A stretch of 64,000 bases of DNA, from the NCBI GenBank assembly GCA_965213625.1, contig CBDBZU010000004.1:1696001-1760000 (forward strand), in the 5' to 3' direction. The stretch comes from a bacterium (GTDB taxonomy: Bacteria; UBA8248). Positions 18,675 through 35,119 of the stretch are shown piece by piece; position 1 is the stretch's first letter, and every line of letters begins with the position of its first letter. Both the position numbers and the translations under genes were made by a program. Under the pieces are notes generated by a model. It was not told the DNA's origin, searched no databases, and was given only the letters and a program-made list of their open reading frames with translations.

Positions 18675-19049
18675 TCAACGCCCGCGCCATTCCCGAGGCA
18701 AAGCGAGTCCCGGGCGGCGGGGCCTTCGCTCGACCCGCCAGGCCGCCACCCATGCCGGGAGAGAGAGCAGGAGCGACTGATCGCCTGTGGGCAGCGTACC
18801 TGAGAAGCCCGCGACTGCGGCGCCGCCGAGCGCGGCCCACGCCACTAGGGCGGGACCCGGATAGCCCGAGCGGGCGAGACGCTTACAGGCGAGCGCCAGC
18901 GGCATGCCGCACGGAGCAACCGCCACCAACTCCACGAGAGAGGCGGGCGCCATCATTCCGGACACGGACCCCACGCGCAGAACCTCTTCCGCCATAATTC
19001 CTCCCGGCAGCCACGACAGCGCCGGAATCCAGAATTTGAGACTGGCCAT
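18675..19049 (-). CDS. Hypothetical membrane protein
   Basis: AGGAGGAGG RBS before MASLKFW; hydrophobic. Confidence 0.45.
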   Translation of the reverse strand: MASLKFWIPALSWLPGGIMAEEVLRVGSVSGMMAPASLVELVAVAPCGMPLALACKRLARSGYPGPALVAWAALGGAAVAGFSGTLPTGDQSLLLSLPAWVAAWRVERRPRRPGLALPREWRGR

Positions 19050-19243
19050 GCCTCCTCCTTCCTCATGTCCGCGCGCCTTCTGACACGAATCCGCGGCAAA
19101 GGCAAGCGCCCTCCGCGAGCGCTCCCCGCCGGGTGAGAACCTCCCCGGGAGAGGTGAAGAGAAGCGGGGAGCCGGGCAAATGCCCGGTAGGGAGAGGGAG
19201 ACGGTCTCCAGTTCCCGCCGCCGGCGACAACCCGAGAGGAGGC

Positions 19244-19384
19244 ATGGCCATGTAGGAGAACGACTACGACGTCGACGTTCCCACCGCGGATGAGTTGCTC
19301 GCAGAACTCGGACTCGACGCGTACACGATCCGCAAGCTGCGCGACGAAGCGCAAGGCGAGGCGGAGGAGTTTTGCAGCGTCTAG
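19244..19384 (+). pseudogene. Small acidic ORF with early amber codon
   Basis: GAGAGGAGG RBS, ATG GCC ATG TAG then open frame ENDYDVDVPTADELLAELGLD... Confidence 0.45.
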
Positions 19385-19462
19385 GACGAACCGGGGGGGC
19401 GGGTGAGAGGATTCCCGGCTCCTCGACTTTATCATCCACACCACACTTCAAGGAGTATCAAA

Positions 19463-19903
19463 ATGGCATTCGGACTGAACCGTGCGGAACTGATCGGGCG
19501 TCTCGGCGCCGACGTTACCATCAACCATCTCGCGAGCGGGGGACGCGTCGCGAATCTATCCATAGCGACCGATGAGGGCTACGTGGACAGGCAGTCCGGC
19601 GATCGGGTGGAGAAAACAGAGTGGCATAGGATCGTGACATTCCAGCCGGGCCTGGTGGACATGCTCGAGAGGCACGCGAAGAAGGGTCGCCTGGTATATG
19701 TCGCGGGCAAGCTCCAGACCCGCCGCTGGAAGAAGGATGAGGAAGACTCGGATCGGTTCTCGACCGAGATCCTCATCGCGCCCGGCGGGGTCGTCCAATT
19801 CTTGGAAAAAATGAACGGGAACAACAACGGCAACGGCGCGCACCCCGAGACGGCCGACGTGGCGCCCACCGCGGGCGTAGTCGGGCAGGAGATTCCATTC
19901 TGA
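19463..19903 (+). CDS. ssb: Single-stranded DNA-binding protein
   Basis: LNRAELIGRLGAD, TEWHRIV, KGRLVYVAGKLQTRRW, C-terminal IPF. Confidence 0.95.
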   Translation: MAFGLNRAELIGRLGADVTINHLASGGRVANLSIATDEGYVDRQSGDRVEKTEWHRIVTFQPGLVDMLERHAKKGRLVYVAGKLQTRRWKKDEEDSDRFSTEILIAPGGVVQFLEKMNGNNNGNGAHPETADVAPTAGVVGQEIPF

Positions 19904-20276
19904 TCACCCCGGGGGGTCGGCGCCACGCGCCGGCTCCCCTTCTTTTTTGCTCCGGATCCCGAGGAGGCCCGGTATGCCCCGAACACCCTCTCCCGCGTCT
20001 TTCCCTCCCTGCCGGCTTCTCTCGTCTACCGGGAACACCCCATAAATCTCCGGTTCCGTGAACGGTAAACCATGTTCCCGGAAGATCGGCTTGCACCTGC
20101 AAGCACTCCATGCTCAAGGCAGTGGCTCAGTCTACCCCCCGCTGCGGAAATTTCGGGCCGAATAACGGCCCGAAATGACCCTTTCCGCAGCATGAGAGAT
20201 TGTTTCCCGATGAGCTTCGCCTTCATCGTGAAACACCAAAAACTCTTGTGTCCCGGTGGCGGTACTAGTGTCTCTC

Positions 20277-20506
20277 TCTTAGCGCCCTCATTTTAGCACG
20301 AACGCCGGGCGAATAAAGGGTGGCCGCAAGCGGCCATCATTTACCGGTGCCCCCCAAAAACGTCGAGCGGCAAAAAACAGGAGCGCCGCTCTATGAACCG
20401 TGTTTTTCGGGAACCCCCCGGAAAATGACAAGCCCTTGATTCGCCCGCCTACGGGCATCGGCAACACCGCCCGATGCCCTTACGTGTTGAAAATGAGGCG
20501 CTAAGA
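20277..20506 (+). promoter_or_regulatory. Long imperfect hairpin, Frpo/ssi-like single-stranded promoter candidate
   Basis: Nested complementary arms over ~230 nt with TTGATT and GAAAAT on the 3' arm, just upstream of DUF4326. Confidence 0.6.
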
Positions 20507-20541
20507 AGCGCATCCGTTAACTCTCTGGAAAGGAGAAAGGC

Positions 20542-20919
20542 ATGGAAACCACCGTGGTGAACCTGAACACATATGTCGATGAACCCGGCAGCGGCCTGCT
20601 GGTGAGGATCGACCGCATGACGAAGTGGGGAAACCCCTTCCGGCTCGGCGCCGACGGCGACAGCGACGCCGTCATCGAGAAATACCGGCGATGGCTGTGG
20701 GAAAAAATCCAGCGCGAGGAGCTCGACCTATACGAACTCGCCGACCTGCAGGGCTGCGAACTCGGCTGCCACTGCCACTGCCATCCCCTCCCGTGCCACG
20801 GCGATGTCCTCGCACGCGCCGCCGAGTGCGCAGCCAGGTATCTCGACGAGATGCCCAAAGAAGTAGGGCGCAACGAGCGTGGCTACGCTCTTCCCGAATT
20901 CAACCATCCCCTCGCTTGA
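20542..20919 (+). CDS. DUF4326 domain protein
   Basis: IDRMTKWGNPF...L.GCELGC.C.P.PCHGDVL signature. Confidence 0.88.
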   Translation: METTVVNLNTYVDEPGSGLLVRIDRMTKWGNPFRLGADGDSDAVIEKYRRWLWEKIQREELDLYELADLQGCELGCHCHCHPLPCHGDVLARAAECAARYLDEMPKEVGRNERGYALPEFNHPLA

Positions 20920-21008
20920 GGACAACCGAACCACCGGCTGAAAAACCCAATCACTGAAAGGAGTGAATGATGACTGCCTCCGCGACTCACGACCGCAAGG
21001 AGAGCACC

Positions 21009-21929
21009 ATGTACGAGAACGATCACAACGATGCCCAGCATGAATCTTTCACCGCCATGGTCTGCGAGCAGGCCGCACTATTCGGCGCGACACCGGGGCC
21101 GGACGAGTTCGACAACCGCCCCGTGTGGGACGAGGGCGAGGCAACCGCCGCCGTCATCAAGGCCTTCGGCGCACTCGCGGAAGCTGCGCCCGACGGCACG
21201 CAACTCGCGGATGAGCGAAGAAACCTCCTGTGGGGGTTCGTCAACACCCTCGACGCGCAGACACAACGCCTCGAGCGCGCCGCCGACAAACTCATCCCCG
21301 GCATCCGCGAACTGCAGCGCGAGCAGGACGGCTCCGAGATCAGGTCGCGCGAACTCGAACTCATGACCGACCGCGCCCAGAACCTGAACGACAGGCGCGA
21401 TGCGTTCGAGGGGCTCAGGGACACGGCCGCAGAGGCCTACCGCATCGAGACCGGCGAGGTATGGCGGCCGAGGCGAGGATCACACGTCTCACAGACCGGC
21501 AAACTGACCTCCGCCGTGATCGAGGCGCGCGACTTCCAGCGCGCCAGAAAGGACCGCGAGAACACCGCACACTTGCCGCAGGGAACTCTCGTCGCCGTCG
21601 CGGGAGGCAAGGAGGCGAGCGATGCGGGTAAAATCATCGCACACCTCGACCGCCTTAAGGCCAAGTACGCCGATGTCGTCCTCGTCCACGGCGGCGGCCC
21701 CGGTGCGGAGAAGATAGCGGCGGGATGGGCCGAGCGGAACGGCGTCAACCAGGTCGTGTGTAAACCGGATTGGGATGCCCACGGACGGGCCGCTCCCTTC
21801 CGCAGGAACGACGAACTCCTGGCACTCCTGCCCAAGGGCGTGATCGCGTTCCCCGGCAGCGGCATCACCGACAACCTCGTCGACAAGGCAAAAACCCTCG
21901 GCATCCCCGTCCAGAAAATCGTCGCCTGA
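21009..21929 (+). CDS. DUF2493 / YspA-cpYpsA SLOG-family protein
   Basis: C-terminal VAVAGG, LVHGG, AAPFRRND, AFPGSGIT; N-terminal coiled coil; AAGGAG RBS. Confidence 0.82.
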   Translation: MYENDHNDAQHESFTAMVCEQAALFGATPGPDEFDNRPVWDEGEATAAVIKAFGALAEAAPDGTQLADERRNLLWGFVNTLDAQTQRLERAADKLIPGIRELQREQDGSEIRSRELELMTDRAQNLNDRRDAFEGLRDTAAEAYRIETGEVWRPRRGSHVSQTGKLTSAVIEARDFQRARKDRENTAHLPQGTLVAVAGGKEASDAGKIIAHLDRLKAKYADVVLVHGGGPGAEKIAAGWAERNGVNQVVCKPDWDAHGRAAPFRRNDELLALLPKGVIAFPGSGITDNLVDKAKTLGIPVQKIVA

Positions 21930-22598
21930 TGCGGGAGCTCAACGGGTCGCGTCGCCCGGCGGCGCGGCCCGTTCTTCTCCTCCTTCATTTGCCGCTGTAC
22001 TTGCCTCCCCGTATTACTCTCCTCCTCTCCTCTCGCTCAGTCGCCGCGGCGGCTCCCGTTCGCCATCTTCTCCGGCGTCGATTCCCCTGTCGCTTGTCCC
22101 ACGGATTCGACCATCTGACGCCCTTCGGCGCTTCGGGTTACACACCGGAACGCAGCAGGCTGCGAAGTTCCGGCATACGACGACCGGGCTACTCTCCCGT
22201 CTCATGTCGGCGACACAGGGCGCCAGGCGCATTGCGGATCGAGCGTATGCTCAGAGCATACACAATCTTTCTCATCCCTGACGGCGCATGGCTGCGCAAG
22301 TCGCGCATGGATACCGGATCCGTCGCAATCGGTGGCGTTCCGTAATACAATGTGTTACGGCCCGCATTACGTTAGTATGCTTCCGATTCTGGCCGTTTCG
22401 CGGTGCGCCGGGGCCGCCACCTGTGCGGAGCGCTCTCTCGCAGATGGCCGCAAGCCCCTGAATACGGGACGTTGAATCGAGCGTAGACGGTCCCGGATAC
22501 GCCCTGATTTTCGCCCCGAACCAAGCCGTCGGAACCCGGAAAGGGCGAGCGATGCGGTCCGTATCGCCACCCGATCTTGTCCTGAGGAAGAGAAAAAG

Positions 22599-22985
22599 AT
22601 GACGCGAAACGACCCGAATCAGCCCGAAAAGAGCAAAAAATCAGCGGAAAAACCGGGCGAACCGAGAGCGCCGCACTCGGTTCGCTTCACCGGTTCGGAA
22701 TGGAAATTGATTAAACGAGCCGCCGAACTGCACGGTATTGCGGCCGGTGAACTCGTCCGCAACGGCGCGATGGCCGCTGTCGAGGAGCTGCTCGACGAGC
22801 CTCCAGAGGCCACCCTGTCGCATGGTCATGCCGCCCTCATCGAGTCCGTCTACCGCATGGTCTACGTGATGGCGACCCTGGATCGGGGACGATTGATCGA
22901 CGCCGGGCGCGGGAAAGAGCTCGAGGACCTCATCGCCGCGGCGCACAGAACGATGGCCGAGACCATGGACGAAGGCACAGGGTGA
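22599..22985 (+). CDS. Ribbon-helix-helix-like DNA-binding protein
   Basis: HSVRFTGSEWKLIKRAAELHGI..GELVR pattern resembles RHH/MobC-type regulators. Confidence 0.55.
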   Translation: MTRNDPNQPEKSKKSAEKPGEPRAPHSVRFTGSEWKLIKRAAELHGIAAGELVRNGAMAAVEELLDEPPEATLSHGHAALIESVYRMVYVMATLDRGRLIDAGRGKELEDLIAAAHRTMAETMDEGTG

Positions 22986-23298
22986 ATGCAGAGGGCGGCG
23001 CGATGCGTGCGTAAGCCGGTTTATCGGTTGCAAATTTGTTGCAAGAACCCGCGAATCGGGCCCGGTCGGACCGCGTTCAGAGCCCCAGGTCCATCTCGAT
23101 CCGCTTCCCGGGGCCGGGTTCGGGTGTCTTCGCGTGCGGCGTTTCCCGTCCGTTTTTCATGCCCGGGGAAGAGGAATCGGAGAGTCCATTCGGGTAAAGT
23201 CCAGATTGCACGGCAACCTTTCGGCCAAAGACACTTGAACACGGAACATTCCGAAGCCCGCTTCAAGAATGTCTCCAACTTGTGTTGCCGGCTTCTGT

Positions 23299-23318
23299 GT
23301 ATTATATTTATATATAAC
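23299..23318 (+). promoter_or_regulatory. Probable pemIK operator palindrome
   Basis: AT-rich dyad TTATAT-TTAT-ATATAA immediately before the antitoxin RBS. Confidence 0.55.
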
Positions 23319-23330
23319 TTGGAGGATTTC

Positions 23331-23588
23331 ATGCACACGACAAATCTGCGCAAAGTCGGTGGTTCCATCATGCTAGCCGTTCCACCTGCCCTTCTTGACC
23401 TCCTGAAACTCGGGGTCGGCGCGAAGGTGGAAATAGACGTGGAGGACGGTCGCCTGATCGTCGAGCCCAAAGCACGTCCCGTCTATTCACTCGATGAGCT
23501 TCTCGCGCAATGCGTAGAGACCTCTACGCAGCCCGCCGAGGACCGCGCCTGGATTGAGGCCAGACCAGTTGGCAAAGAGTTGTTGTAG
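23331..23588 (+). CDS. pemI: PemI/MazE-family antitoxin
   Basis: MHTTNLRKVGGSIMLAVPP AbrB fold; YSLDELLAQC; ends GKELL. Confidence 0.9.
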   Translation: MHTTNLRKVGGSIMLAVPPALLDLLKLGVGAKVEIDVEDGRLIVEPKARPVYSLDELLAQCVETSTQPAEDRAWIEARPVGKELL

Positions 23589-23920
23589 TGAAGCGGGGTG
23601 AAATCTGGCTCGTCAGCCTCGACCCCACCGCAGGCCATGAACAACAGGGTACCCGTCCGGTACTGATCGTATCCCCAGACCCGTTCAATAGACTCACCGG
23701 GACGCCCGTGGTCTTGCCGATCACATCGGGCGGCGACTTTGCGCGCAGGGCAGGTTTCGCAGTTTCTCTCTCGGGCGCGGGTACCCGAACAACCGGTGTC
23801 GTCCGTTGCGACCAGCCGAGGTCCCTTGATCTCGCTGCCCGCAACTGGGCGCGTCTCGAAACCGTTCCTGAACTTATTATGGACGAAGTGCTTGCCCGAA
23901 TCGCCACCATCCTCGAATAA
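23588..23920 (+). CDS. pemK: PemK/MazF-family endoribonuclease toxin
   Basis: RGEIWLVSLDPTAGHEQQGTRPVLIVS, PITSGG, CDQPR. Confidence 0.92.
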   Translation: MKRGEIWLVSLDPTAGHEQQGTRPVLIVSPDPFNRLTGTPVVLPITSGGDFARRAGFAVSLSGAGTRTTGVVRCDQPRSLDLAARNWARLETVPELIMDEVLARIATILE

Positions 23921-24354
23921 AAAGTGATTGTTCGTCTTCAAGGCCGGACGGCACTTATCAGTGATTTCCCGTTTCGGGTCCCAGTTCTTGCGAATAACGC
24001 TAATTTGCCAATGCAATAGAGGGAGCGGCACCGATTGGCTTAATCGGTCCTGGTTCAGGGAGAGGTGAGGAGCGAAATTTCGTGCCTTGGAGCGTCAGGT
24101 GGGAAGATCGGTAAACGTAATGAATGTGATCGTACGTCAGCTTCATTTTTTTCTCCTGTTGGGTATGGATGAAAAAATTGGGGAATTGTAACCCAAAGTT
24201 GACAAGATTTTTAGGATAAATATCTACCCCGCTATTGGACTATTTCTACAGAGCGCCTGGCCTTTTTGTACTCGACATTCAAACGATGTACCGTCTTAAT
24301 CAACTCGGAAGACTTGCCGAAAACTACGAACATCAACTTATTTTTCCAATGGAT

Positions 24355-24729
24355 TGCAGTTGAAAAACTTCCATGAGGAAGCCTTTTTTGATCCGTTCGA
24401 TGCACCACCATGATAAGAGCTTCAAATTCTTCGGCGGGTAGATTCTGGATTTCATCAATCAAGATGATGATCGAAGATTTGCGCGCCTTCGCTGCCTCGC
24501 CCGCGGCGACAAACACCTCGGCAAAATCACGGGCTAGCGTGCCGCTGTCGGCAACTCCTGGTTCACCATCTATGTCTAAGAAAAATTCAATATCCTCAAC
24601 CTTGATCTTGACCGCACCAACAAAACTCTTTAGAACGCGCAAACTCCTTTTTACATGTTCACTAACCCCCTTGATTCGATCAAGCTTCAGCAAGATCGAG
24701 CGCAAAGTGGCAATAATCGTTTTCGACAA
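24355..24729 (-). pseudogene. Internal fragment of an AAA+ ATPase
   Basis: Walker B IILIDEIQ but no Walker A or start; runs into an IS-end-like TTTTTCAAC motif. Confidence 0.6.
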
Positions 24730-25218
24730 AATTCGTTCGTGCTGATTTCGATAAAGTCTGTGAGTGCGTATTCTTTAGATTTTGTTTGGAGGTGTAGCTA
24801 TTGAACTCAAGAGGAATTGAGAAGGGCTATAAGTCTTAGTGAATCAGAATCAATGCCTACTTGGTTGCCGGTTTCAGATACAGCATAACGTGCTCACCGC
24901 TCAATACAAGATATTGATTTCACTTCGTCATGTGTATAATCACGGATAAAATCGCGGAGTCTACTGGTGATGGGGTTCAATACGAGCGTCGGCGCCTTCG
25001 TATACTTGATCGAATACCATCACCTGAAAGCCGGAGTTTCTATTGATTTATTGGTCAGGCTCGGAAGTGAAGCGGTGAAATTGAAGTTCCTGGTGCACAC
25101 AGCTATCGATGCTCGAGGACGTTAAATGTATGACCCGAGTCGTCCAATACGGCGTGTTAATTCGCAAGTCGTCTGGTGGTACTAGAGAAACACGAGCAAC
25201 TGACGAGGAGGTGACTTC

Positions 25219-25518
25219 ATGAACCCCAAAATAACCATACCGAAACCCGCGCTTTCCGCCTTCTGTCGGGAGAACGGTATCCGCCGGCTTTCCGTCTTCG
25301 GCTCGGCCTTGGGTGAGGATTTTGGACCCGGGAGCGATATAGACCTTCTCGTCGAATTCGAGCCGGAAGCTAGAATCGGCTTCATGAAACTGGCCAGGAT
25401 GCAAAGGGAGTTGGCGGCCATCATTCACCGCAAGGTGGATCTGGTTCCCCAAGATGGATTGAAGCCGAAAATACGAACGGAGGCGCTTTCGGGCGCGGAA
25501 GTGATCTATGCGGCGTGA
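25219..25518 (+). CDS. MntA-type minimal nucleotidyltransferase antitoxin
   Basis: VFGS.....F..GSDIDLLVEF, RKVDLV; GGAGGTGA RBS. Confidence 0.9.
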   Translation: MNPKITIPKPALSAFCRENGIRRLSVFGSALGEDFGPGSDIDLLVEFEPEARIGFMKLARMQRELAAIIHRKVDLVPQDGLKPKIRTEALSGAEVIYAA

Positions 25519-25864
25519 GGAACTCTACCTCGCCGACATGCTGGAGGCTGCGGACGCCATCGGCCGATTCCTTCTGGAAACCGAGCAACATTCGTTCATC
25601 GCGGACGACCTGCTGCGTAGCGCCGTCCTGCATAAATTGGCGGTCATCGGCGAAGGAGCAACCCGGTTGTCCGATGCGTTTCAGGCGCGCCATCCCCAAA
25701 TCGAATGGGGAGACATCGTGGCGTTTCGCAACATCATCGTTCACGCCTACTTTTCTGTGGATTGGCCTATCGTCTGGGTGACGGCGACACAGGACGTTCC
25801 GGAACTTCGGCGCGGAATCGCCCGGATACTTGCGGAAGAATACCCCGACTGGGAAGCACGGTAA
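25508..25864 (+). CDS. HepT-like HEPN (DUF86) ribonuclease toxin
   Basis: IGE, FRNIIVHAY (RX4HXY); overlaps the MNT gene. Confidence 0.9.
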   Translation: MRREELYLADMLEAADAIGRFLLETEQHSFIADDLLRSAVLHKLAVIGEGATRLSDAFQARHPQIEWGDIVAFRNIIVHAYFSVDWPIVWVTATQDVPELRRGIARILAEEYPDWEAR

Positions 25865-26196
25865 CCTTCCTCGAGCCGCGCAGAAACAATAAACGGCATG
25901 GAACCAGATGGGCGCGAAGGGGAGAACAATCTAGTCAGGCGGATATGTCGTCCCGCCCCTGAACTCTCAAACGCCCTTGTCCGCAGGTGTGGTGACTCCG
26001 ATTTCTCCGCGCAGGAGGCGCCTGAAGGTGGCCCGTCGCCACCCGTTCCTGCACCGGGCGATCCTGCGTCCGACGCGGTTCCGCCTGCCGGCGGGCATCG
26101 AAGCCGAGCGCCCGTCGATCCAAGAGGTATATTCCGCTTGGCGCTGCTCGATGAGCGAAACCCGGCCGTCCCGTTGATGCGGCGTTTCGAGGAGAA

Positions 26197-27035
26197 TTGA
26201 CACGCGAACAGCGCGCTGCCACAGATTCCCTGTTCGCGCACGAGACCGGCGTAAGTGCCGCCGCGTCCGGGTTCGGCAAGACGGTCGTCGCAGCATTGAT
26301 GATAGCTGAGCGCGGCGTGAAGACGCTCATCCTCGTTCATCGCCGCCAGCTGATGATGCAGTGGATTGCGCGGCTTGGTGTTTTTCTCGATCTTACTACT
26401 TCCGCCATCGGACGGGCCGGGGGCAGGAAACGCAAGCTTAGCGGGGTCATAGACGTCGCCACGCTCCAGAGTCTGGAGCGCAAAAACGTGGTGGACGACC
26501 TCGTCGCCGACTACAGGCACCTCGTGGTCGACGAGTGCCACCACTTATCTGCGGTGAGCTTCGAGGTGGTGGCGCGCCGCGCCAGGGCGAGGTACGTGCT
26601 CGGGTTGTCTGCGACCATCATGCGCAAGGAGCACGCCGGGGAACTCGCCGGGAAGATCGGGCGCTTCGCGCGAAACGTCCTGCTCTTCAGAGGCGGCATG
26701 GAAGAGAGAGCGCCGCGAGATCATGCAGCGCCTGGAAGACATACCCGACGGCGAGGAGCGGGTACTGGTCGTGACCGGCCGCTATATCGGAGAGAGATTC
26801 GACGATGTCCGCCTCGACATGCTGTTCCTCGCGATGCCCGTGTCGTGGCGGGGAACGCTGGCCCAGCACTTCGGCCGCCTGCACCGGCTCCATTCAAAAA
26901 AACGCGAAGGTGCTAGTCTACGAATATATCGACGACGCGGTGCCGGCGCTCAGGCGTTATGGGCGGCAGTCGCGTCAAGGGCTACGAGAGCCTCGGCTAC
27001 ACAGTCGAGTGGCCCGGCGTCCCAAGCGGAACGTG
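26197..27035 (+). pseudogene. SF2 DEAD/DEAH (ResIII-like) helicase remnant
   Basis: GFGKT, DECHH, LSAT in one frame; TGRYIGE.FD..LD.LFL and GRLHR in a second; VYEYID in a third; internal deletion after LSAT. Confidence 0.8.
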
Positions 27036-27449
27036 AACTTACAGGCCCGGGCGAGTATGGCGCTGACGTTATTACGGTCGCGTGATCCGGACAAGGTGAA
27101 GATATAGGCCTGCCTGACGGCGGCAGGCGATCTCAAACGGTTCAGTGCCGCTCATTTTTCTAGGTTATGTACCCCTTGGAGGGCTCTTGCATCAACTGGA
27201 ATCGCCGTACGAATATCCATGAAGCTTACAAACCCCACGGTCTCGATCTACCTGAACCCAAGTAATACAAACCGTTCCGAACCCAATTCCTCACCTTATT
27301 TCATAAAGCAGGTGGTTTATGTACGTGGGGCAGTCCTTGGGAGGAGCTGCCACCTGCGAATCAATCATTCTCTTTGGGCCTACTCCCCCACCCCTGCATA
27401 AATATATCCTTGTCCTGAGGCGAGGAATGCTTCAAAGAACTCCACACAC

Positions 27450-27478
27450 AAAAAACCGGGGGGCCGAAGCCCCCCGGT
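27450..27478 (-). terminator. Rho-independent terminator of the element porin
   Basis: ACCGGGGGGC-TTCG-GCCCCCCGGT plus T-run; same hairpin as at 33355. Confidence 0.88.
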
Positions 27479-27519
27479 CGTCATCGCGTCAGGTAAGGAC
27501 TCGAGCGTCCTTCATGCTG

Positions 27520-28746
27520 CTAGAATGAATGCCTCAACCGCCAGCTGACCACCCACCCGTCATCGGGCTCAGTCGCGTTGGCCGCTCTGCCGTAGTCGCC
27601 GCGCAGGATGACGGCGCCAACAGCGCGAAGCTCGGTACGCGGATGTATTTTCCACTTGAAGCCGGCGTTGAGCTCGGTGCCGAATTCCTTGGAAGTATCC
27701 ATATTATCTCCGGGATGACTTTCTGCGGAGTTGTAAACGGATACGCCACCACCCAGCGAAAATGTTTTGCTGATCTTGTACTCGCCTATTCCCTCGAGCA
27801 CAACCGCGCCGTTCAAATTTTTCAAAGTAACGTCTTTCAGATCGTTATTGATACTATCCCAGCGGCGCGAACTCATGATGTGAGAACCGTGGAGCCAACC
27901 GGAACCATTGTTTTGAGGGAAATGGAATTTACCCGTTTCGCCGTCTTTGCCTTCGTCATCGCCGGAGAGCATCGTGAGGTTGCCCTCGAGTTTCAGCTTG
28001 CCCAGGCTTGCGGAAGTCCTCACCAAGACGGCCCATCCCGAAAGATCCGTCCCTCCATCGAGCTCACCATCCTGGCCGACGACCGAGGCGTTCAAGTTGA
28101 AGATGCCTACCTTGCCCTTGGCGTGGAGACCGAAGAAGCTGTAGTCATAACCGTTATTCGCTCCGTTTCTGGAATTGGCCAGCCAAGGAGAGAGCGTGAG
28201 AGTGGGCGACACTTTGACGCCCACGCTGGCATAGTAATCCTCTTTATCGGCGTTGGCTTCGCTCTTGTCTTCACTAGCCTTGACATAAAACATGCTGAGC
28301 GACATGTTCTTGCTGAGCTTGCCATAGACCCCGACGCCCGGCTCGCGAGTCCGTCCGCCGCTGTCGTAGATTTCCTTATCTGGCGAGAAGCGATCCCAAC
28401 GGCCCCAACGCATGCGGAGCGTGCTGCCCGGGATCGCGAAGTCGATCGCCCAGCGGTTCACACCTAGGGTCTGACGACTGGCATTGGTGAAACCGCCGTG
28501 CGGGCTTTGAAATTCGGGCTCCCACACGGTTGTGACTGCGCCGCTCTTCACCGTGAATCGCGGGCGGATGAGCGCTTCGAGGTAATTATCCTTGTCGTCT
28601 GCGTCATCGTCCCCGTCTTTGTTGGCGTTATTGCTGGTGCCGCGCACCTGATAGAGACCGGTCATCTTGAAGTCGGCCGCATACGAGGGCAAGGTGAATG
28701 ACAAGACGAGCGCCATCGCAAATAGAGCTAACAGAATTTTCCTCAT
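27520..28746 (-). CDS. Outer-membrane beta-barrel porin, element-borne allele
   Basis: Signal peptide ending SYA, amphipathic beta strands, C-terminal W.LRHSF; colinear homolog of 32084-33313. Confidence 0.82.
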   Translation of the reverse strand: MRKILLALFAMALVLSFTLPSYAADFKMTGLYQVRGTSNNANKDGDDDADDKDNYLEALIRPRFTVKSGAVTTVWEPEFQSPHGGFTNASRQTLGVNRWAIDFAIPGSTLRMRWGRWDRFSPDKEIYDSGGRTREPGVGVYGKLSKNMSLSMFYVKASEDKSEANADKEDYYASVGVKVSPTLTLSPWLANSRNGANNGYDYSFFGLHAKGKVGIFNLNASVVGQDGELDGGTDLSGWAVLVRTSASLGKLKLEGNLTMLSGDDEGKDGETGKFHFPQNNGSGWLHGSHIMSSRRWDSINNDLKDVTLKNLNGAVVLEGIGEYKISKTFSLGGGVSVYNSAESHPGDNMDTSKEFGTELNAGFKWKIHPRTELRAVGAVILRGDYGRAANATEPDDGWVVSWRLRHSF

Positions 28747-29001
28747 GTGTATTTCTCCTCATCGAGGTTTCAAAAAAATGTTGCCGCCTTCCTTCGTTTT
28801 AATGTCCTGATTGTTCGATGCTTCTGAATCTGTGCTTCGTCGCCTGAAACAGGGCTTCCCGCTCTCACATCACCCCCTCTCTTCAATACTGCCCCGTACG
28901 TCGACAAGGTTCTATCGAGCGATCTGATAATTGCCGCTTATGTAGACACTATCCCATTAGTAAAAATAGTCATTCCATTCTTCATTTCTCAAAAGAATAG
29001 A
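28720..29001 (-). repeat. 282-bp inverted repeat, copy 1 (core site, -10 box, leader, first porin codons)
   Basis: Reverse complement of 31829-32110 with no mismatch seen by eye. Confidence 0.93.
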
Positions 29002-29278
29002 AAAGATATGATTTAAAAGCTAAAACGCCGACAATCATGCGCATGGATGCGCTCATGCATGATAAATACATGTTTTTAATTTATTTATAATTACACTTTC
29101 TTCCGCGTTGCCTCTTGCGCCATCGCCAGATTTGTGCTGGAATGCGCTCTCAGTTGATGCGGGACGTATGCGTTATGATGACGTATTTTGACGGGAGCGC
29201 CGCACCGGAGCATGCGGATGGGCGTTCCCGCAGACCGCCGCAGGCATGCGGTTTGATGACACACCGGAGGGAGGAACC

Positions 29279-30463
29279 ATGCCGAGGAGAAGCGAATTCA
29301 GGCTCACCAAGCGCGCCGTCGACGCGCTCGAAACCGAACGCCGCGACGCCCTGTTCTGGGACCGGGATCTGGCCGGATTCGGGGTGCGCGTCCACGCCAC
29401 GGGACGGAAGGTTTTTGTCGCGCAATCGAGAGGCCCCAGGGGGATAAAACGCGTGACCCTGGGCCGTGACGGGGAGATGTCGTGCGAGGAGGCGAGGAGG
29501 CAGGCCGCCATCGTCATCGACCGCATTAAAAGCGGCGAGGACCCCGTCCCGAAGCCGCCTGAGGCGGAACCCACCCTGGGGGAGATCGCCGAACGCTTCA
29601 TGAGCACATACGTGGAGAGGCGCCTCAAGCCGGGCAGCGTCGTGGAGTACCGCACCATGCTGGACAAATACATCCTGCCAGCCCTGGGCGGGATGGCGCT
29701 GTCCGAGGTCAGGCGGGCGCAAATCTCCGCGTTTCATCACGGCATGCGCGGCATGCCGAGCCGGGCGAACACGTCGCTCCACGTCCTCTCCCGGATGCTC
29801 AGCCTGGCCGAGGCGTGGGACCTCATCCCGCCCGGACGGAACCCGTGCAGGGGAGTGCCGCTCTACAAGACGCGCTCGCGCGAGCGGTTCCTGACGACGG
29901 AGGAATACCGCCGCCTGGGCCGGACGTTAAAAGAAGCCGAGGCGGACGGCTCGATCTGGTCGCCCGCGATCAAGGCGATCCGGCTGCTCATGCTGACCGG
30001 ATGCCGGAGGAACGAGATACTGAACCTTAAGTGGGACGATGTGGACCGCACGGCGGGCGTTCTGAGGCTCAGGGACGCCAAGGCGGGCCCCCGCATGGTT
30101 CCCCTGACGAATCCCGTGCTGAGGGTTCTCGAGACGCTCCCCCGGAAGCGGGGCGAGCCATGGGTGATCCCCGGGCAGAACCCGGGCCAGAACCTGCGGA
30201 GCCTTCACTACTACTGGCGGCGCATACGGGAGCGGGCGGGTCTCTCCGACGTGCGGATCCATGACCTGCGCCATTCGTTCGCTTCGCGTGCGCTTGCGCT
30301 GGGCGAGAGCCTCTACACGATCGGCAAGCTTCTGGGACACGCGACGGTGCCGACGACGGCGCGCTACACGCACCTGATGCTCCGGGCCGAGAAGGATGCG
30401 GCCTCCCGTGTGGGGGGAAGCATCGGCGTTCACCTGACGAACGAGAAGGAGGAACTTGAATGA
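29279..30463 (+). CDS. Tyrosine recombinase/integrase 1 with arm-binding domain
   Basis: WD..LAGFGVRV N-terminus; TGCRRNE, DAKAG, HDLRH, LLGH, TTARY catalytic set intact. Confidence 0.95.
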   Translation: MPRRSEFRLTKRAVDALETERRDALFWDRDLAGFGVRVHATGRKVFVAQSRGPRGIKRVTLGRDGEMSCEEARRQAAIVIDRIKSGEDPVPKPPEAEPTLGEIAERFMSTYVERRLKPGSVVEYRTMLDKYILPALGGMALSEVRRAQISAFHHGMRGMPSRANTSLHVLSRMLSLAEAWDLIPPGRNPCRGVPLYKTRSRERFLTTEEYRRLGRTLKEAEADGSIWSPAIKAIRLLMLTGCRRNEILNLKWDDVDRTAGVLRLRDAKAGPRMVPLTNPVLRVLETLPRKRGEPWVIPGQNPGQNLRSLHYYWRRIRERAGLSDVRIHDLRHSFASRALALGESLYTIGKLLGHATVPTTARYTHLMLRAEKDAASRVGGSIGVHLTNEKEELE

Positions 30464-31629
30464 AGAAGCCGGGCACGATGGTGCTGTCGAGCCGGATGGT
30501 GGAGAAGTTTGCCGTGGAAAAAGACACGGTGTACTGGGATAGTTACGTCACCGGCTTCGGCGTCAGGGTGTATCCGAGCGGGAGCAAGGTCTACATCGCC
30601 CAGGCGCGGGGGCCCGGGGGGCCGAAGCGCGTGACGATAGGCCGCCACGGGGTGATCAACGCGGATGAGGCGAGAAGGCGCGCGGCGCTCGTCATCAATC
30701 GCATCAAGTCGGGCGAGGAGGGGGTTCCAAAACAGACGAAGCCCGTGCCCGGTCCCACGGTGGCCGAAGCCGCCGCGCGGTATCTCGCCGAATACGTGGA
30801 GGTGCGCTGTAAGCCGCACACCGCCGCCATGACCCGGTCGCTACTCGGAAGACGCATCTTGCCCGCCCTGGGCGGGACGCCGCTCGCGGTGGTGGAGCGC
30901 GCGCAGGTGGCGGAACTGCACCAGAGCATGCACGAGACGCCCCCGACGGCGAACAGGACAGTCGGCATCCTCTCCGCGCTATACCGGTATGCCGAGAGGT
31001 GGGGCCTCATTCCCGAGGGAGCGCCGAACCCCTGCCGCGCCGTCGTCAAATTCCCCAAGCGACAGGGGGAGCGTTTTTTGACGGATGAAGAGTTCATCCG
31101 CCTGGGACGCACACTCGATGAGGTGGAGAAAAGCAAGCCGAAGTACGCGAACGCGGTGGCGGCGATCAGACTTCTGGCCCTGACGGGGTGCCGGAAGTCG
31201 GAAATCCTCACCCTGCGCTGGGAGAACGTGGCGCTGGAAGAGGGGGAATTGAGACTGCCCGATTCCAAGACGGGCGCCCGCGTGATATCGCTCCCGCCGC
31301 AGGCGGTCGCTCTCCTGGCCGCCCTGCCCCGGGAGGAAGGGAATCCCTGGGTGATTCGCGGCAGGAAGCCGGGCGTTCGCCTGATGAATATCTATGGCGT
31401 TTGGCACTACGTCCGAGCGCGGGCGGGTCTCGATGACGTGCGCCTCCACGACCTCCGCCACTCGTTCGCGTCCAGAGCGCTCGCGCTGGGCGAGAGCCTT
31501 CCGATGATCGGCAGGCTCCTGGGGCACAGCCGCATTGAGACCACGGCGCGCTACGCGCACCTAGCGCGCGATACCGCGTACGAAGCGGCCGAGCGGGTTG
31601 CGGCGAGCATCGAGAAAGACATACTATGA
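30460..31629 (+). CDS. Tyrosine recombinase/integrase 2 with arm-binding domain
   Basis: TGCRKSE, DSKTG, HDLRH, LLGH, TTARY; ATGA overlap with integrase 1. Confidence 0.95.
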   Translation: MKKPGTMVLSSRMVEKFAVEKDTVYWDSYVTGFGVRVYPSGSKVYIAQARGPGGPKRVTIGRHGVINADEARRRAALVINRIKSGEEGVPKQTKPVPGPTVAEAAARYLAEYVEVRCKPHTAAMTRSLLGRRILPALGGTPLAVVERAQVAELHQSMHETPPTANRTVGILSALYRYAERWGLIPEGAPNPCRAVVKFPKRQGERFLTDEEFIRLGRTLDEVEKSKPKYANAVAAIRLLALTGCRKSEILTLRWENVALEEGELRLPDSKTGARVISLPPQAVALLAALPREEGNPWVIRGRKPGVRLMNIYGVWHYVRARAGLDDVRLHDLRHSFASRALALGESLPMIGRLLGHSRIETTARYAHLARDTAYEAAERVAASIEKDIL

Positions 31630-31806
31630 GAGGCAATCGACGGGGTGGACGAAAAGAACCGGACTGGCCGGGTTCGTGTGCTCGTTTTTTTGAAATTTTC
31701 AGATTCGGGGTTTGACGAATCAGTCTATCTTCGCTAATACTATGTCTATGTGGAATAGGGTGACTGATTCCGAAAGATTTCTTTTCGGATTCAGGTGGGA
31801 AGTTTG

Positions 31807-31836
31807 TTGACAAAATATAAATTTTCGATCTATTCT
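31807..31836 (+). promoter_or_regulatory. Hybrid sigma70 promoter P2 driving the resident porin (overlaps attR)
   Basis: TTGACA-18 nt-TATTCT; GTTTGTTGACAAA shared with P1. Confidence 0.72.
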
Positions 31837-32110
31837 TTTGAGAAATGAAGAATGGAATGACTATTTTTACTAATGGGATAGTGTCTACATAAGCGGCAAT
31901 TATCAGATCGCTCGATAGAACCTTGTCGACGTACGGGGCAGTATTGAAGAGAGGGGGTGATGTGAGAGCGGGAAGCCCTGTTTCAGGCGACGAAGCACAG
32001 ATTCAGAAGCATCGAACAATCAGGACATTAAAACGAAGGAAGGCGGCAACATTTTTTTGAAACCTCGATGAGGAGAAATACACATGAGGAAAATTCTGTT
32101 AGCTCTATTT
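31829..32110 (+). repeat. 282-bp inverted repeat, copy 2
   Basis: Matches reverse complement of 28720-29001. Confidence 0.93.
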
Positions 32111-33313
32111 ACGATGGCGCTCGTCTTGTCGTTCACCTTGCCCTCGTATGCAGCCGACTTGAAATTCAGCGGCTTCTTCCGGGTACGTGGTTCCAGTGAA
32201 AACGTCAACAAAGACGGTGACGATGACAGGGATGACAAAGCAAACTACCTGGACGCGCTCATCCGCCCGCGCTTCACGGCGAAAAGCGGCGCAGTCACGG
32301 CCGTGTGGGAGCCCGAGTTCGTAAGCGCGAACGGTGGCTTCGCCATCGGCCCCGGCCGGCAGACCGTCGGCGTCAACCGCTGGGTGATCGACTTCGCCGT
32401 TCCGGGCAGCGCGCTCCGCATCCGCATGGGCCGGACGGACTACTTCTCGCCGGACAAGGAAATCTATGACAGCGGCGGTCGTCATCGTGAGCCTGGCATT
32501 GCACTTTACGGCAAGCTCAGCAAGAACATGTCGCTCAGCGCGTTTATGACCAAGGCGAACGAAGACGCTGGCCCAGATAACAACGATAAGACGGATTACT
32601 ACATCGGCGTGGGTGTCAAGGTGACCCCCAATCTCACGCTCTCGCCGTGGGCGGCCAACTCCAGGGACGCTGCGGAAGGCGGTTATGACTACAGCTTCCT
32701 CGGTATCAACGCCAAGACCAAGGTGGGCATCCTGAACGTGAACGGTTCTGTCGTCATCCAGGAAGGTGACCTCTCGAGCGGTGATGAGCTCTCGGGTTGG
32801 GCCGTTCTGCTGAGGACTTCCACGACTCTCGGCAAGCTGAAGCTCAGCGGCAACCTCACGATGCTCTCCGGCAACGACGGCACCAAAGCTGGCGAAGACG
32901 GACGCTTCAGGACGCCTCAGGAAGGCGGTTCCGGCTGGTTTGTCGGCGGCCACATCATGACTTCGCGCCGCTGGACGACTCTTAACAACGGTATCAGAAG
33001 CGTGCACCTGGGCGCCTTGAACGGCGCGACTGTGCTCGAGGGGCTGGCCGATTTCAAAGTCAGCAAGACCTTGACGCTGGGCGGCGGCGTATCCCTTTAC
33101 AATTCCGCCGAACCTTCCCTCGCAGCGAACACGATGGACGCGAAGGAATTCGGCACCGAGCTCAACGCCGGCTTCAAGTGGAAGATCCACTCGAACCTCG
33201 AGCTTCGCGGTGTGGGCGCCGTTATTCTGCGCGGCGATTACGGCAGAGAGATCGGCGGTTCCGAGACGGATGACGGCTGGGCGGTCGGCTGGACGCTGCG
33301 CCACATCTTCTAG
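32084..33313 (+). CDS. Outer-membrane beta-barrel porin, resident allele
   Basis: Signal peptide, beta-strand periodicity, C-terminal W.LRHIF; GAGGAG RBS, strong terminator. Confidence 0.82.
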   Translation: MRKILLALFTMALVLSFTLPSYAADLKFSGFFRVRGSSENVNKDGDDDRDDKANYLDALIRPRFTAKSGAVTAVWEPEFVSANGGFAIGPGRQTVGVNRWVIDFAVPGSALRIRMGRTDYFSPDKEIYDSGGRHREPGIALYGKLSKNMSLSAFMTKANEDAGPDNNDKTDYYIGVGVKVTPNLTLSPWAANSRDAAEGGYDYSFLGINAKTKVGILNVNGSVVIQEGDLSSGDELSGWAVLLRTSTTLGKLKLSGNLTMLSGNDGTKAGEDGRFRTPQEGGSGWFVGGHIMTSRRWTTLNNGIRSVHLGALNGATVLEGLADFKVSKTLTLGGGVSLYNSAEPSLAANTMDAKEFGTELNAGFKWKIHSNLELRGVGAVILRGDYGREIGGSETDDGWAVGWTLRHIF

Positions 33314-33354
33314 CAATATGACGGACCTTCGCGTTCTCACTTGACGCGACGACG

Positions 33355-33385
33355 ACCGGGGGGCTTCGGCCCCCCGGTTTTTTTT
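33355..33385 (+). terminator. Rho-independent terminator
   Basis: ACCGGGGGGC-TTCG-GCCCCCCGGT-TTTTTTT. Confidence 0.9.
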
Positions 33386-33581
33386 GTATGGAAATATTTG
33401 CGACGGCATTACGCTGCAGGGACAGGCCTACGTGCCTGTCTTGATGAAGGCCTTCTTGCCGATGAAAGCGAAGGACAACCACTGAATGTTGTCCCTAAAG
33501 GACCGGACCAGGAATCACGAAGGGCAGGACAGCCCGAAAGGGTTATCCCTACGCCTGCCTTCTGGCGCTGGTTGCATATTT

Positions 33582-33857
33582 GGGGTTGTTGGAAAACACT
33601 GTTTAGAGAACCCCGAAGAAGGGAGAGTTTATCGGTTCGCTCACCGCTCTAAATAGGGCGCCTTTCCCTCACCCCGAGTAGGCGCCGAAGGTAAAACTCG
33701 ACTGAGGAAGGAGCGTTTGTATCGAAGGGCGGAGGGGAGTCGAACGCCTTGCGTTGGGGCGAGAATGCAATTCCTCTTTCATTAGTCGGAATTGACCTTC
33801 GATACGCGGTTTCACCGCTACTCAGGATGAGACGGAGAGGACTTTTTCAACAGCCCC
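33582..33857. mobile_element. MITE-like element with IS1182-type ends enclosing a REP doublet
   Basis: GGGGTTGTTGGAAAA ... TTTTCAACAGCCCC ends; internal CTCACCCCGAGTAG..GTATCGAAGGG and its inverse. Confidence 0.65.
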
Positions 33858-33979
33858 ATATGCCCACTCCGCCCGCATTTCAGACGATATCGCTTGAGGG
33901 GTTTGGCGGGGGATGGTATATCCTTGGTGCGTAGCCGCGCGTTCGTCCGAAACGACACACATCAGGGAAAGAGCGAGAA

Positions 33980-35119
33980 ATGAACAAGCACCACCTCATG
34001 GCCCCCGGTCCCACGCCGGTTCCTCACCGGGTGCTCGAAGCGATGGCGCGGCCCCTGATCCACCACCGGACGCGAGAGTTCGAGGCGCACTTCGAAGGAG
34101 CGCGGCGCGATCTGGAATGGCTCTTCCAGACGAGCGGCGACGTCATCACCCTCGCCGCTTCTGGTTCGGGCGGCATGGAGGCGGCGGTGGCGAACCTGCT
34201 CTCTCCGGGCGATTCCGCGCTCGTCATCGAGGGCGGCAAGTTCGGCGAGCGCTGGACGGAGCTTTGCGCGGCGTACGGGGTCGAGGCGGACGTCCTGGAG
34301 GTGGAATGGGGCCGTTCGGTCGACTTGAATGTTCTGGAGGCGCGCCTCGAGCGTGGAGGGCACAAGGCCCTGCTGATGCAGGCGAGCGAGACCTCCACGG
34401 GCGCCAAGCACGACGTCCATGCCGTCGCGAGGGTCGTGCGCGAGCGATCGCCAGAGACGCTCGTGGTGTTGGACGCCATCACGGCTCTTGGCGTTTATGA
34501 TCTCAAGACCGAGGATTGGGACCTGGACGTGGTGATCACGGGGAGCCAGAAAGCGCTCATGCTCCCGCCGGGACTGGCCTTCGTCTGGCTGAGCGAGCGG
34601 GCCTGGCGCGCCACGGCGGATTCGACTTCGCCCAGGTATTATTTCGACCTCGCCATCGAGCGTAAAAGCCAGATGAAGAACACCACCGCCTGGACGCCGG
34701 CGATTTCCCTTCTGGCGGGTCTGGCGGTCGCGCTCGACATGATGCGCGAGGAGGGGCTGGAAAATATCTTCGCGCGGCATGCGCAGCTTGCGCGGGCGAC
34801 GGGGGCGGCCGTCGAGGCTCTTGGTCTCGCCATATTCCCCCGCGATTTGAGGAGCGAGGCCGTTACCGCGGTCTGCGTGCCCGATGCAGTGGACGGGAAG
34901 GCGATTCCCCTGAGGATGCAGGATGCGCACGGCGTGACCATCGCCGGAGGACAAAACGGCTTGAGCGGCAAGATTTTCCGAATCGGGCATCTGGGGTATG
35001 TGGATTCCTCAGACGTGCTGGCAACAGTCGGCGCGCTGGAATCGACTCTCGCCGAGCTGGGCTATTCACTCCAAAGAGGATGCGGTCTCGCAGCGGCGCA
35101 GGAGGTGTTCAACGAATGA
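33980..35119 (+). CDS. Class V PLP aminotransferase (alanine-glyoxylate/serine-pyruvate family, likely SerC role)
   Basis: PGPTPV, ETSTG, GSQKALMLPPG, FRIGHLG; coupled to serA. Confidence 0.9.
   Translation: MNKHHLMAPGPTPVPHRVLEAMARPLIHHRTREFEAHFEGARRDLEWLFQTSGDVITLAASGSGGMEAAVANLLSPGDSALVIEGGKFGERWTELCAAYGVEADVLEVEWGRSVDLNVLEARLERGGHKALLMQASETSTGAKHDVHAVARVVRERSPETLVVLDAITALGVYDLKTEDWDLDVVITGSQKALMLPPGLAFVWLSERAWRATADSTSPRYYFDLAIERKSQMKNTTAWTPAISLLAGLAVALDMMREEGLENIFARHAQLARATGAAVEALGLAIFPRDLRSEAVTAVCVPDAVDGKAIPLRMQDAHGVTIAGGQNGLSGKIFRIGHLGYVDSSDVLATVGALESTLAELGYSLQRGCGLAAAQEVFNE

Follow-up and report, generated by a model that had tools for sequence, protein, structure and literature searches.

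A candidate invertible promoter module between two porin alleles, at the end of an apparent integrative element in an uncultivated bacterium

The locus described here, from a bacterium of the lineage UBA8248, is probably a module whose invertible promoter selects one of two major-porin alleles, and the module would belong to, or descend from, an integrative element in the porin promoter; we put the probability of this reading at about 60%. The window analyzed, to which all coordinates refer, is the whole stretch of 64,000 nucleotides between positions 1,696,001 and 1,760,000 of contig CBDBZU010000004.1 (GenBank assembly GCA_965213625.1). Two porin genes, porL and porR, diverge here from a segment coding for two integrases, and the 5′ ends of both lie in the arms of a long inverted repeat.

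27454-27479 (-): terminator hairpin and T-run of porL
27520-28746 (-): porL, porin allele inside the inserted segment, 408 aa, without a -35 in the reference orientation
28720-29001 (-): left repeat arm, with the first 9 codons, the 255-nt leader and the -10; inverted junction sequence at 28991-29001
29168-29182 and 29246-29260 (+): two 15-bp direct repeats upstream of int1
29279-30463 (+): int1, tyrosine integrase with arm-binding domain; start placed after GGAGG, as in its paralogues (the ORF opens at 29246)
30460-31629 (+): int2, tyrosine integrase with arm-binding domain; start overlapping the int1 stop by 4 nt
31807-31836 (+): promoter before porR, with the -35 TTGACA (31807-31812) on the putatively invertible segment and the -10 TATTCT (31831-31836) within the repeat
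31829-32110 (+): right repeat arm; junction sequence 31829-31839 is the attR-like copy
32084-33313 (+): porR, porin at the native position beside aminotransferase and serA genes, 409 aa
33354-33379 (+): terminator hairpin and T-run of porR, the same as that of porL

The porin pair and the inverted repeat

The initial annotation had described two divergent porin genes, about two-thirds identical and with the same terminator, and this was borne out: 281 of 409 residues are common to both products (69% identity) and the hairpins match. The identity was 58% in the predicted outer loops and 73% in the strands and turns. The product of porL was also 82.5% identical to the sole porin of a congener, G008. 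All Pfam and NCBIfam matches of the two proteins stayed below the family cut-offs. The AlphaFold2 model (pLDDT 80) had 18 strands, and a fold search with it gave AlgE as the top PDB match (TM 0.64-0.67), followed by the MOMP of C. jejuni and the OprD family, with E values of 6e-16 and weaker. Outer-membrane porins are marked by a signal peptide and a beta-barrel of 16-18 strands, and the predicted protein fits this class. The neighbours of the porin in the protein atlas belong mainly to Thermodesulfobacteriota and Nitrospirota.

A base-by-base comparison reproduced exactly the mismatch-free inverted repeat of 282 nt that had been reported between 28720-29001 and 31829-32110. The similarity continues at 91% to 517 nt and at 80% across the whole genes (27441-29001 and 31829-33392). 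An Rfam scan of 26500-34500 gave no family matching the 255-nt leader. The genome is a metagenome-assembled genome in four contigs, and a perfect repeat in such an assembly could be suspected of being an artefact of assembly or polishing, the layout included. We consider this hardly credible. The public read data (four runs from one sample, stored as k=31 contigs, which break at the repeat) provided independent k-mer contigs in which the repeat bin had approximately twice the depth of its flanks. The left-arm bin stood at 127 against 61 in run X1, 92 against 46 in X2 and 38 against 21 in X3, while in X4 the contig was placed on the other arm and the right-arm bin had 117 against 52-62. In addition, the unique contigs end 30 nt inside the inner edges of the repeat (28972 and 31858). 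The double depth and the ends of the unique contigs within the repeat indicate that it is no artefact of the assembly, and the same layout was found in six other assemblies. Three small contigs (C1 to C3) were compared as possible other versions of the locus, and they are not.

A promoter divided between segment and repeat

The site TTGACA(31807)-18-TATTCT(31836), with 10 of 12 matches, is the top promoter-like site in 27300-33500. At a spacing of 16-18 nt, the -35 candidates of the left arm reach 3/6 at best, in agreement with the earlier statement that the region between the repeats has a single TTGACA, placed for porR, and that the left copy lacks a good -35. Judged by sequence, the segment would carry a promoter element reading outward, with the -35 on the segment itself and the -10 in the repeat. 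The block GTTTGTTGACAAA at the porR promoter was invariant in all six aligned cassettes, and in the seven complete cassettes described below the -35 was invariably on the int2 side and never on the int1 side. The same promoter, at an equal distance from the porin, is present in the single-porin congeners G002, G022, G008, G007 and G001, and was also found at six of nine further porin loci scanned. Judging from the single-porin congeners, TTGACA-N17/18-TATTCT is the ancestral porin promoter. Each repeat arm also has a weak promoter-like site (TTGAGA-18-TATTTT, 9 of 12 matches), so that expression of the two alleles may not be exclusive; these sites had been overlooked in the initial annotation.

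The integrases

The 2.8 kb between the repeats had been said to hold only two tyrosine recombinases, and we found there two intact tandem ORFs, both with integrase domains. The two proteins are full length, 51% identical to each other, and above the cut-offs for PF00589 (Phage_integrase, E values of 7.6e-24 and 4.1e-21) and PF13356 (Arm-DNA-bind_3). Both have the motifs HDLRH, LGH and ARY, which we take to be the catalytic residues. A conserved Arg, His-x-x-Arg, His and Tyr mark the catalytic domain of this class, and arm-type members have an arm-binding domain at the N-terminus. Their nearest relative of solved structure is XerD, and on these grounds they can be classed as tyrosine recombinases with an arm-type (P4-like) domain. 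Bounding inverted repeats, together with two Phage_integrase proteins as the putative site-specific recombinases of the locus, give the segment the composition of an inverton. The 15-bp direct repeats upstream of int1 were conserved in the six cassette genomes aligned, and one copy is found upstream of other int pairs as well; they are candidate arm-type or operator sites.

Purifying selection on the integrases is indicated by dN/dS values of 0.14-0.39 in all 14 pairs computed. The dS of the int block was below that of its flanks. The integrases belong to a family that is multicopy and mobile (17 matches in this genome, 20-23 in some relatives), a membership that had not been recognized before. 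None of six other int copies of the same genus had flanking inverted repeats and, given also the mobile and multicopy nature of the family, the integrases may be passengers. No shared end sequence, nor any likeness to the 11-bp junction sequence described below, was recognized at the other int-pair copies of this genome. In the phylogenetic tree the int2 proteins of the cassettes formed two well-supported clades on long stems, excluding all 22 other copies of the genus included in the tree, and a single origin of these two clades was unsupported (value 5).

A probable integrative element in the porin promoter

An integrative element appears to have been inserted in the porin promoter, bringing a spare porin allele, and the putative switch would form one end of it. 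The features to the left of the porin pair are the following.

13358-15277 (+): FG-GAP / LpoB-like gene (Pfam), 639 aa, with which the conserved left flank ends
15549-15580 (+): orphaned native porin promoter, TTGACA (15549-15554), 17-nt spacer, TATTCT (15572-15577); attL-like junction copy at 15570-15580
15581-27440 (no strand): element cargo, approximately 11.9 kb, absent from the single-porin genomes G002, G022 and G008
19403-19903: cargo, SSB (Pfam)
20967-21929: cargo, YAcAr/SLOG protein (Pfam)
22986-23588: cargo, MazE-like protein (Pfam)
25219-25864: cargo, MNT/HepT (Pfam)
26197-26916: cargo, helicase fragment (Pfam)

The 11-bp sequence TCTATTCTTTT, which contains the -10, forms the inner edge of both repeat arms and has a third copy at 15570-15580. 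It is found four times in the 4.13 Mb of the genome, against 0.45 expected, and three of the four copies are at this locus. For the copy at 15580 the similarity, here to the porin leader, ends at its right edge, and for the copies at 29001 and 31829 the break is on the left. The left flank is colinear with the single-porin relatives to about 15292, and the region upstream of the orphaned promoter matches the DNA that precedes the porin promoter in G002, G022 and G008. These three genomes pass directly from the equivalent of 15579 to 31829 onward, with 16.2 kb missing, and since there is no gap between the two equivalents they look like the empty site. It is this absence, together with the third junction copy, that places the apparent switch at the end of an integrative element. 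Presence and absence among relatives, 11-bp repeats at both ends (15570 and 31829) and int1/int2 at the right end are, in this genome only, what would be expected of such an element. The third promoter copy was found here only, so that the interpretation of the 11-bp sequence as an att core rests on one genome; a single full promoter was found in each of five other cassette genomes, and the four G011-type cassettes among them have native upstream DNA on the -35 side. The third junction copy, the orphaned promoter and the 16.2-kb insertion had all escaped the initial annotation. The integrated element contains a second full promoter, at 15549-15577, which we have counted against the main reading. 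The usual target of this type of integrase is a tRNA gene; some of the other int-pair copies are in the vicinity of tRNA genes, and there is none within 15000-45000 of the window, i.e., the element is not beside a tRNA.

Comparison within the genus and beyond

A cassette with the order porin-int1-int2-porin beside the aminotransferase and serA genes was found in seven of 23 genomes of the genus (G000, which is the genome described here, G011, G012, G013, G014, G016 and G020), and two more contigs (G005 and G021) have an int2 leading into a porin. None of seven single-porin loci had an integrase within the approximately 18 kb examined per locus. All seven cassettes have inverted repeats, and in all seven the porin gene lacking a -35 is intact, full length and provided with a terminator. 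The arms, perfect in this genome, are 98.9% identical in G014 and 72-88% in the other five cassettes; in G011, G012, G013 and G016 the range is 76-88%. The inverted layout is found without cargo in G011, G012 and G020. The last of these is the closest relative (integrases 95-96% identical to those of the window) and is the one species of the seven in which the int segment is inverted relative to its flanks, with the -35 toward the distal porin, so that the resident-side porin is the one without a -35. A comparison of G013 with G016 showed a swap of the porin bodies, whereas the leaders had remained with the int block. For such a swap the crossovers must have fallen inside the genes and away from the 11-bp sequence, which suggests homologous recombination.

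The proposal that flipping 29002-31828 would hand the promoter over to the other allele is supported in part by these data. The ancestral -35/-10 pair, the position of the -35 at the int2 end in all cassettes and the inverted segment in the closest relative argue for a hand-over borne by inversion; that switching takes place within a population, and that the integrases catalyze it, is what we infer from the arrangement of the locus.

A scan of genome collections with int2 found an int pair between inverted paralogous genes in two of 24 loci, L048 (the locus of G020) and L053, and flanking inverted paralogues were found at none of 25 loci screened (11 from the metagenome scan and 14 from genome searches). 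A second kind of cassette was found in an alphaproteobacterial metagenome-assembled genome: two divergent operons, each with genes for a lipoprotein and a Slam protein, enclose a related int pair, and a 91-nt inverted repeat covers the 5′ ends of both operons. This case is thin, because among the relatives of that genome there was one orthologue, at a contig end, and the further locus found in the genome itself amounts to half a cassette. The top relative in a scan of metagenome contigs with int2 was 61% identical, leaving no near-identical strains for comparison.

Proposed mechanism and alternative explanations

We propose that the ancestral promoter (TTGACA, 17-18 nt, TATTCT, 255-nt leader) was split at TCTATTCTTTT, in such a way that each porin would retain its own copy of the -10, leader and start codon, the two copies being oppositely oriented, and the 2.8-kb segment would hold int1, int2 and the only -35. 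Recombination of the two inverted copies would flip the segment, and the -35 now in front of porR would come to stand before porL, which would gain the strong promoter that porR loses. Int1 and Int2 would most likely make the crossover, at the 11-bp sequence, which marks the insertion of 16.2 kb at its two ends (15570-15580 and 31829-31839) like an att core. If the two direct copies recombined, the element would be excised and the native promoter restored, and homologous recombination between the long repeats would also act over evolutionary time, keeping the arms of this genome identical. The benefit may be an altered surface receptor for phages or other porin-docking agents. A fuller version, which we hold as tentative, at somewhat less than even odds, is that the element enters the -10 box of the major-porin promoter with a spare allele and a substitute -35, and that its own integrases, acting on three att cores, either flip its integrase and promoter module (receptor swap) or excise the element (native state).

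The same hand-over of the promoter could result from inversion by RecA homologous recombination, the int pair serving the element for its integration and excision and nothing else. The perfect 282-bp repeat and the 98.9% arms of G014 give RecA sufficient substrate and suggest gene conversion, the G013/G016 swap of porin bodies with unchanged leaders needs crossovers within the genes, and the integrase family is mobile and multicopy. However, the 72-88% arms of five of the seven cassettes are a poor substrate, yet the cassette is retained there and its intact integrases are under purifying selection. Besides, the breaks of similarity coincide with the 11-bp sequence that also bounds the insertion, and the cassette integrases form clades of their own on long stems. 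We regard this explanation as a serious rival, though a clearly less likely one.

We are more doubtful still about the absence of any programmed switch. An island would have landed in the porin promoter and its own -35 would keep the resident porin expressed, with porL silent in reserve or supplying sequence for gene conversion, and the inversion in G020 would be a rare accident. A 16.2-kb insertion with mobile-type cargo and 11-bp direct repeats at its bounds fits such a history, as do the single orientation common to six of the seven species and the exchange of porin alleles among species (porL with the porin of G008), the int block having a lower dS than its flanks. Yet porins without a -35 have been kept intact and with their terminators in every cassette, the cargo-free inverted layout recurs in three genomes, and in G020 it is the resident-side porin that is left without the -35.

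Relation to known systems

The invertible module that we favor would be a variant of systems already known to invert promoters or switch alleles (fim, hin, C. fetus sap and Mycoplasma vpma), and the statement in the initial annotation that no described system has this layout was too strong. In C. fetus sap, oppositely oriented surface-protein homologues with conserved 5′ ends flank an invertible segment with a single promoter; the segment has secretion genes and no recombinases, and its inversion is largely RecA-dependent. There too, inversion of a promoter segment picks which of the divergent homologues is expressed, but here two integrases are on the segment, the cargo is a porin, and the break falls between the -35 and the -10. 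The fimS element of E. coli (314 bp, with 9-bp repeats) works as an ON/OFF switch whose recombinases FimB and FimE are encoded outside and have no arm-binding domain. Like in fim, the recombinases of our locus are adjacent paralogues, about half identical, by an invertible promoter for a surface structure, but they are inside a 2.8-kb element, have Arm-DNA-bind_3 domains and would choose between two alleles. Salmonella hin has recombinase gene and promoter together on the invertible segment, as here, although Hin is a serine invertase and one orientation drives fljBA while the other drives nothing; our locus has tyrosine integrases. Integrative islands and prophages may restore their target or bring a porin, e.g., the Lc porin of phage PA-2. 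Like the present element, they have short direct repeats at their ends and integrase genes at one of the two, and they bring a replacement for the displaced part and a porin gene. However, the present insertion is in the -10 region of a promoter and not in a tRNA or coding sequence, and a third, inverted junction copy would make the integrase module of the element itself invertible.

In the vpma system of M. agalactiae, site-specific inversion joins one expression site to alternative surface-protein gene bodies through conserved 5′ regions (PMC2268961). SusC/RagA outer-membrane proteins are among the families enriched as inversion targets, and no occurrence of the word porin was found in that article (PMC9881135). 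Mycoplasma vpma and vsa and Bacteroides SusC/SusD share with our locus an inversion within conserved 5′ regions that swaps surface-protein bodies at one expression site, but they work with a single recombinase on short sites and have several copies that are silent. A literature search within one library of articles found no report of porin alleles switched by inversion or of tandem arm-type integrases acting as invertases.

Biological significance

Phages commonly dock on porins, through which solutes also pass. If the proposed switch is real, this uncultivated lineage would have a heritable and reversible choice of its main porin allele, i.e., a bet-hedging device. Arm-type integrases, normally taken as markers of integration, would act as invertases within the very segment that they flip, and a mobile element would target the -10 box of a promoter and control the receptor displayed by its host. 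Dividing the promoter between the mobile part, which has the -35, and the repeat, which has the -10, would be a compact design, directly testable by a reporter. The alphaproteobacterial cassette with Slam and lipoprotein genes would then point to a wider class of element-borne surface switches.

The divergent porins and their inverted repeat

The initial annotation had described two divergent porin alleles, about two-thirds identical and with a common terminator hairpin, enclosing two tyrosine recombinases behind a mismatch-free 282-bp inverted repeat, with a single good -35 (TTGACA, 31807) placed for the right-hand porin. All of these features were recovered:

27520-28746, minus strand, left-hand porin (porL), 408 aa
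32084-33313, plus strand, right-hand porin (porR), 409 aa
28720-29001 and 31829-32110, the two arms of the inverted repeat

The two porins share 281 of 409 residues, and the same hairpin and T-run terminates both. Their matches in Pfam and NCBIfam all fell below the cut-offs. With 21 relatives as input, AlphaFold2 modelled porR with 18 strands (pLDDT 80), and the best solved matches of the model are AlgE (TM 0.64–0.67), the C. jejuni MOMP and OprD/Occ porins. Identity between porL and porR is 58% in the predicted outer loops and 73% in strands and turns, and length variation in the family is found mostly in loops. The genome of the window (G000) has only these two copies, while each of the 22 other genomes of the genus has at least one. 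Several porin-like stretches lie in tandem at two loci of the congener G019 (G019:C1 2441330-2444637 and 2848518-2851936; 14 matches in all), a different route to multiplying the same gene.

The ORF listing, the repeat search and a base-by-base comparison agreed on a repeat of 282 nt with zero mismatches, of which 27 nt are coding and the other 255 nt lie upstream. Its inner end is abrupt and its outer end gradual, with identity of 91% over 517 nt and 80% across the whole genes. The repeat is real rather than an assembly artefact, because in independent k-mer contigs (four runs of one sample) its depth was about twice that of the flanks and the unique contigs stopped 30 nt within its inner edges. 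Another, short repeat lies downstream of porR (33660-33860), with some 20–38 copies in the genome and a summed metagenome-contig depth of about 2000 vs about 100. It probably belongs to the REP- or MITE-like elements, and similar repeats of ca. 90 nt are scattered over the porin locus of G014.

A split promoter

The top sigma-70-like site in 27300-33500 was the TTGACA at 31807, followed by an 18-nt spacer and TATTCT (10 of 12 matches), with the -35 outside the repeat and the -10 within it. In five congeners with a single porin (G002, G022, G008, G007 and G001), TTGACA and a -10 of T(C/T)TATTC form, or a variant of this, are separated by 17–18 nt and stand as far from the porin as in the window; the same site was present on six of nine further porin loci scanned. 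This comparison marks it as the ancestral porin promoter, split in the cassette. On the int2 side, all six aligned cassettes share the block GTTTGTTGACAAA without change, amid otherwise poorly conserved DNA, and nothing comparable was found on their int1 side; G014 has the same asymmetry of the promoter. Exclusive expression of the porins is uncertain, since each arm also holds a weak promoter-like site (9/12 matches). The 255-nt leader (31829-32083), without a match in Rfam, is conserved across the genus, single-porin genomes included, with long invariant blocks, and may be a regulatory leader.

The tandem integrases

Both ORFs between the arms, int1 and int2, have Phage_integrase, Arm-DNA-bind_3 and SAM-like domains. 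They are 51% identical, and the stop of int1 overlaps the start of int2. The usual catalytic motifs can be read in both sequences. Upstream of int1 lie two direct repeats of 15 bp, conserved in six of six cassettes, which may be arm-type sites or operators. Int1 and Int2 come from a family of tandem pairs with multiple copies in genomes of the genus (17 matches in G000, 20–23 in G002, G013 and G020), and further pairs, some of them close to tRNA genes, were seen in MAGs with the labels Binatia, Thermodesulfobacteriota, Alpha- and Gammaproteobacteria. Flanking inverted repeats were found at none of six other copies from the same genus. Another pair in G000 is present twice (G000:C4 5721-8082 and 190478-192839) as part of a duplicated 11-kb stretch whose copies are 99.8% identical. 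When 38 Int2 proteins were placed in a tree, the eight porin-locus copies formed two starred clades with long stems and no other copy within, the union of which was unsupported. Within the G011 group, the integrase block had a lower dS than its flanking genes, and between this group and the window a higher one; the cassette therefore has an exchange history of its own.

Orientation of the segment and mechanism of inversion

The order porin, int1, int2, porin beside aminotransferase and serA genes was found in seven of 23 genomes (G000, G011, G012, G013, G014, G016 and G020), and int2 runs into a porin on two more contigs (G005, G021). No integrase was found at seven single-porin loci within the ca. 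18 kb fetched. Relative to both flanks, the integrase segment is oriented alike in six genomes and is reversed in G020, the closest relative (integrases 95–96% identical to those of the window), where the -35 points at the distal porin, leaving the porin on the serA side without one. No other result speaks as strongly for the occurrence of the inversion proposed in the initial annotation, in which flipping 29002-31828 hands the promoter to the other allele. A porin switch by segment inversion is well supported by such comparison between genomes, as distinct from the population level.

Regardless of the enzyme responsible, inversion would place the -35 in front of the other porin. Int1 and Int2 are the more likely candidates, and purifying selection has preserved them in every cassette (dN/dS 0.14–0.39 in all 14 pairs computed, a set that leaves out two int1 pairs owing to an in-frame stop in the extracted G016 gene). 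A junction sequence common to the insertion ends also speaks for them, as do arms that are just 72–88% identical in five of the seven cassettes. Homologous recombination between the arms could also make the inversion, and it is favored by the perfect arms of G000 and the 98.9% identical ones of G014. Moreover, between G013 and G016 the porin bodies have been exchanged while both leaders stayed with the integrase block, therefore crossovers inside the genes are needed.

Insertion in the porin promoter

Colinearity with the window extends to about 15292-15579 in three genomes (G002, G022 and G008) and resumes from about 31802-31831. A third copy of the promoter lies at 15549-15580, with native-type upstream DNA, TTGACA, a native-type spacer of 17 nt and TCTATTCTTTT, followed by unrelated AT-rich DNA. 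This 11-mer occurs four times in the 4.13-Mb chromosome (0.45 expected), three of them at the locus:

15570, plus strand, 11-mer, similarity ends at its right edge
28991, inverted, 11-mer, similarity ends at its left edge
31829, plus strand, 11-mer, similarity ends at its left edge

Breaks at these edges are what one would expect after exchange within the 11-mer. Between the direct copies, 16.2 kb of DNA encode an SSB, a SLOG-family protein, MazE-like (22986-23588) and MNT/HepT toxin-antitoxin (25219-25864) genes and helicase fragments, and then porL, int1 and int2. We read this segment as a putative integrative element in the porin promoter, with the integrases at one end, which would supply a substitute -35 and bring a spare porin preceded by the element's own junction sequence in inverted orientation. 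The third promoter copy was found only in G000, so that part of the evidence comes from a single genome. In both G011 and G012 the module lacks cargo, having the left-flank gene on one side and native upstream DNA on the other.

Comparison with known systems and related cassettes

The layout works like that of C. fetus sap and like the expression-site switching described for Mycoplasma (PMC2268961) and Bacteroides SusC/SusD (PMC9881135), while the two paralogous tyrosine recombinases recall fimB/fimE. It differs in its porin cargo, the split promoter, the arm-type integrases on the flipped segment and the link to a putative integrative element. A search of one literature collection, limited to the papers themselves, turned up no account of a system of this kind.

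An alphaproteobacterial MAG (L053 1350-12709; see also L121 6500-15100) has a related integrase pair flanked by two divergent operons. Both operons encode a Slam protein (68% identical between operons) and a large lipobox-bearing lipoprotein, and a 91-nt inverted repeat covers the ribosome-binding site and signal peptide. Two direct repeats of ca. 16 nt are found upstream of int1 here too. The same genome has half a cassette at a second locus 118 kb away, and one relative has an orthologue at a contig end. This thin evidence hints at a wider class of such switches. Within the genus, the segment between the junction sequences measures 2827–3095 nt in six of the seven cassettes and 20.8 kb in G014 (loci L039/L040), where the near-identical arms enclose ThiC, luciferase-like oxidoreductase, TPR and FG-GAP genes together with the integrase pair, so that inversion would turn over housekeeping-like genes.
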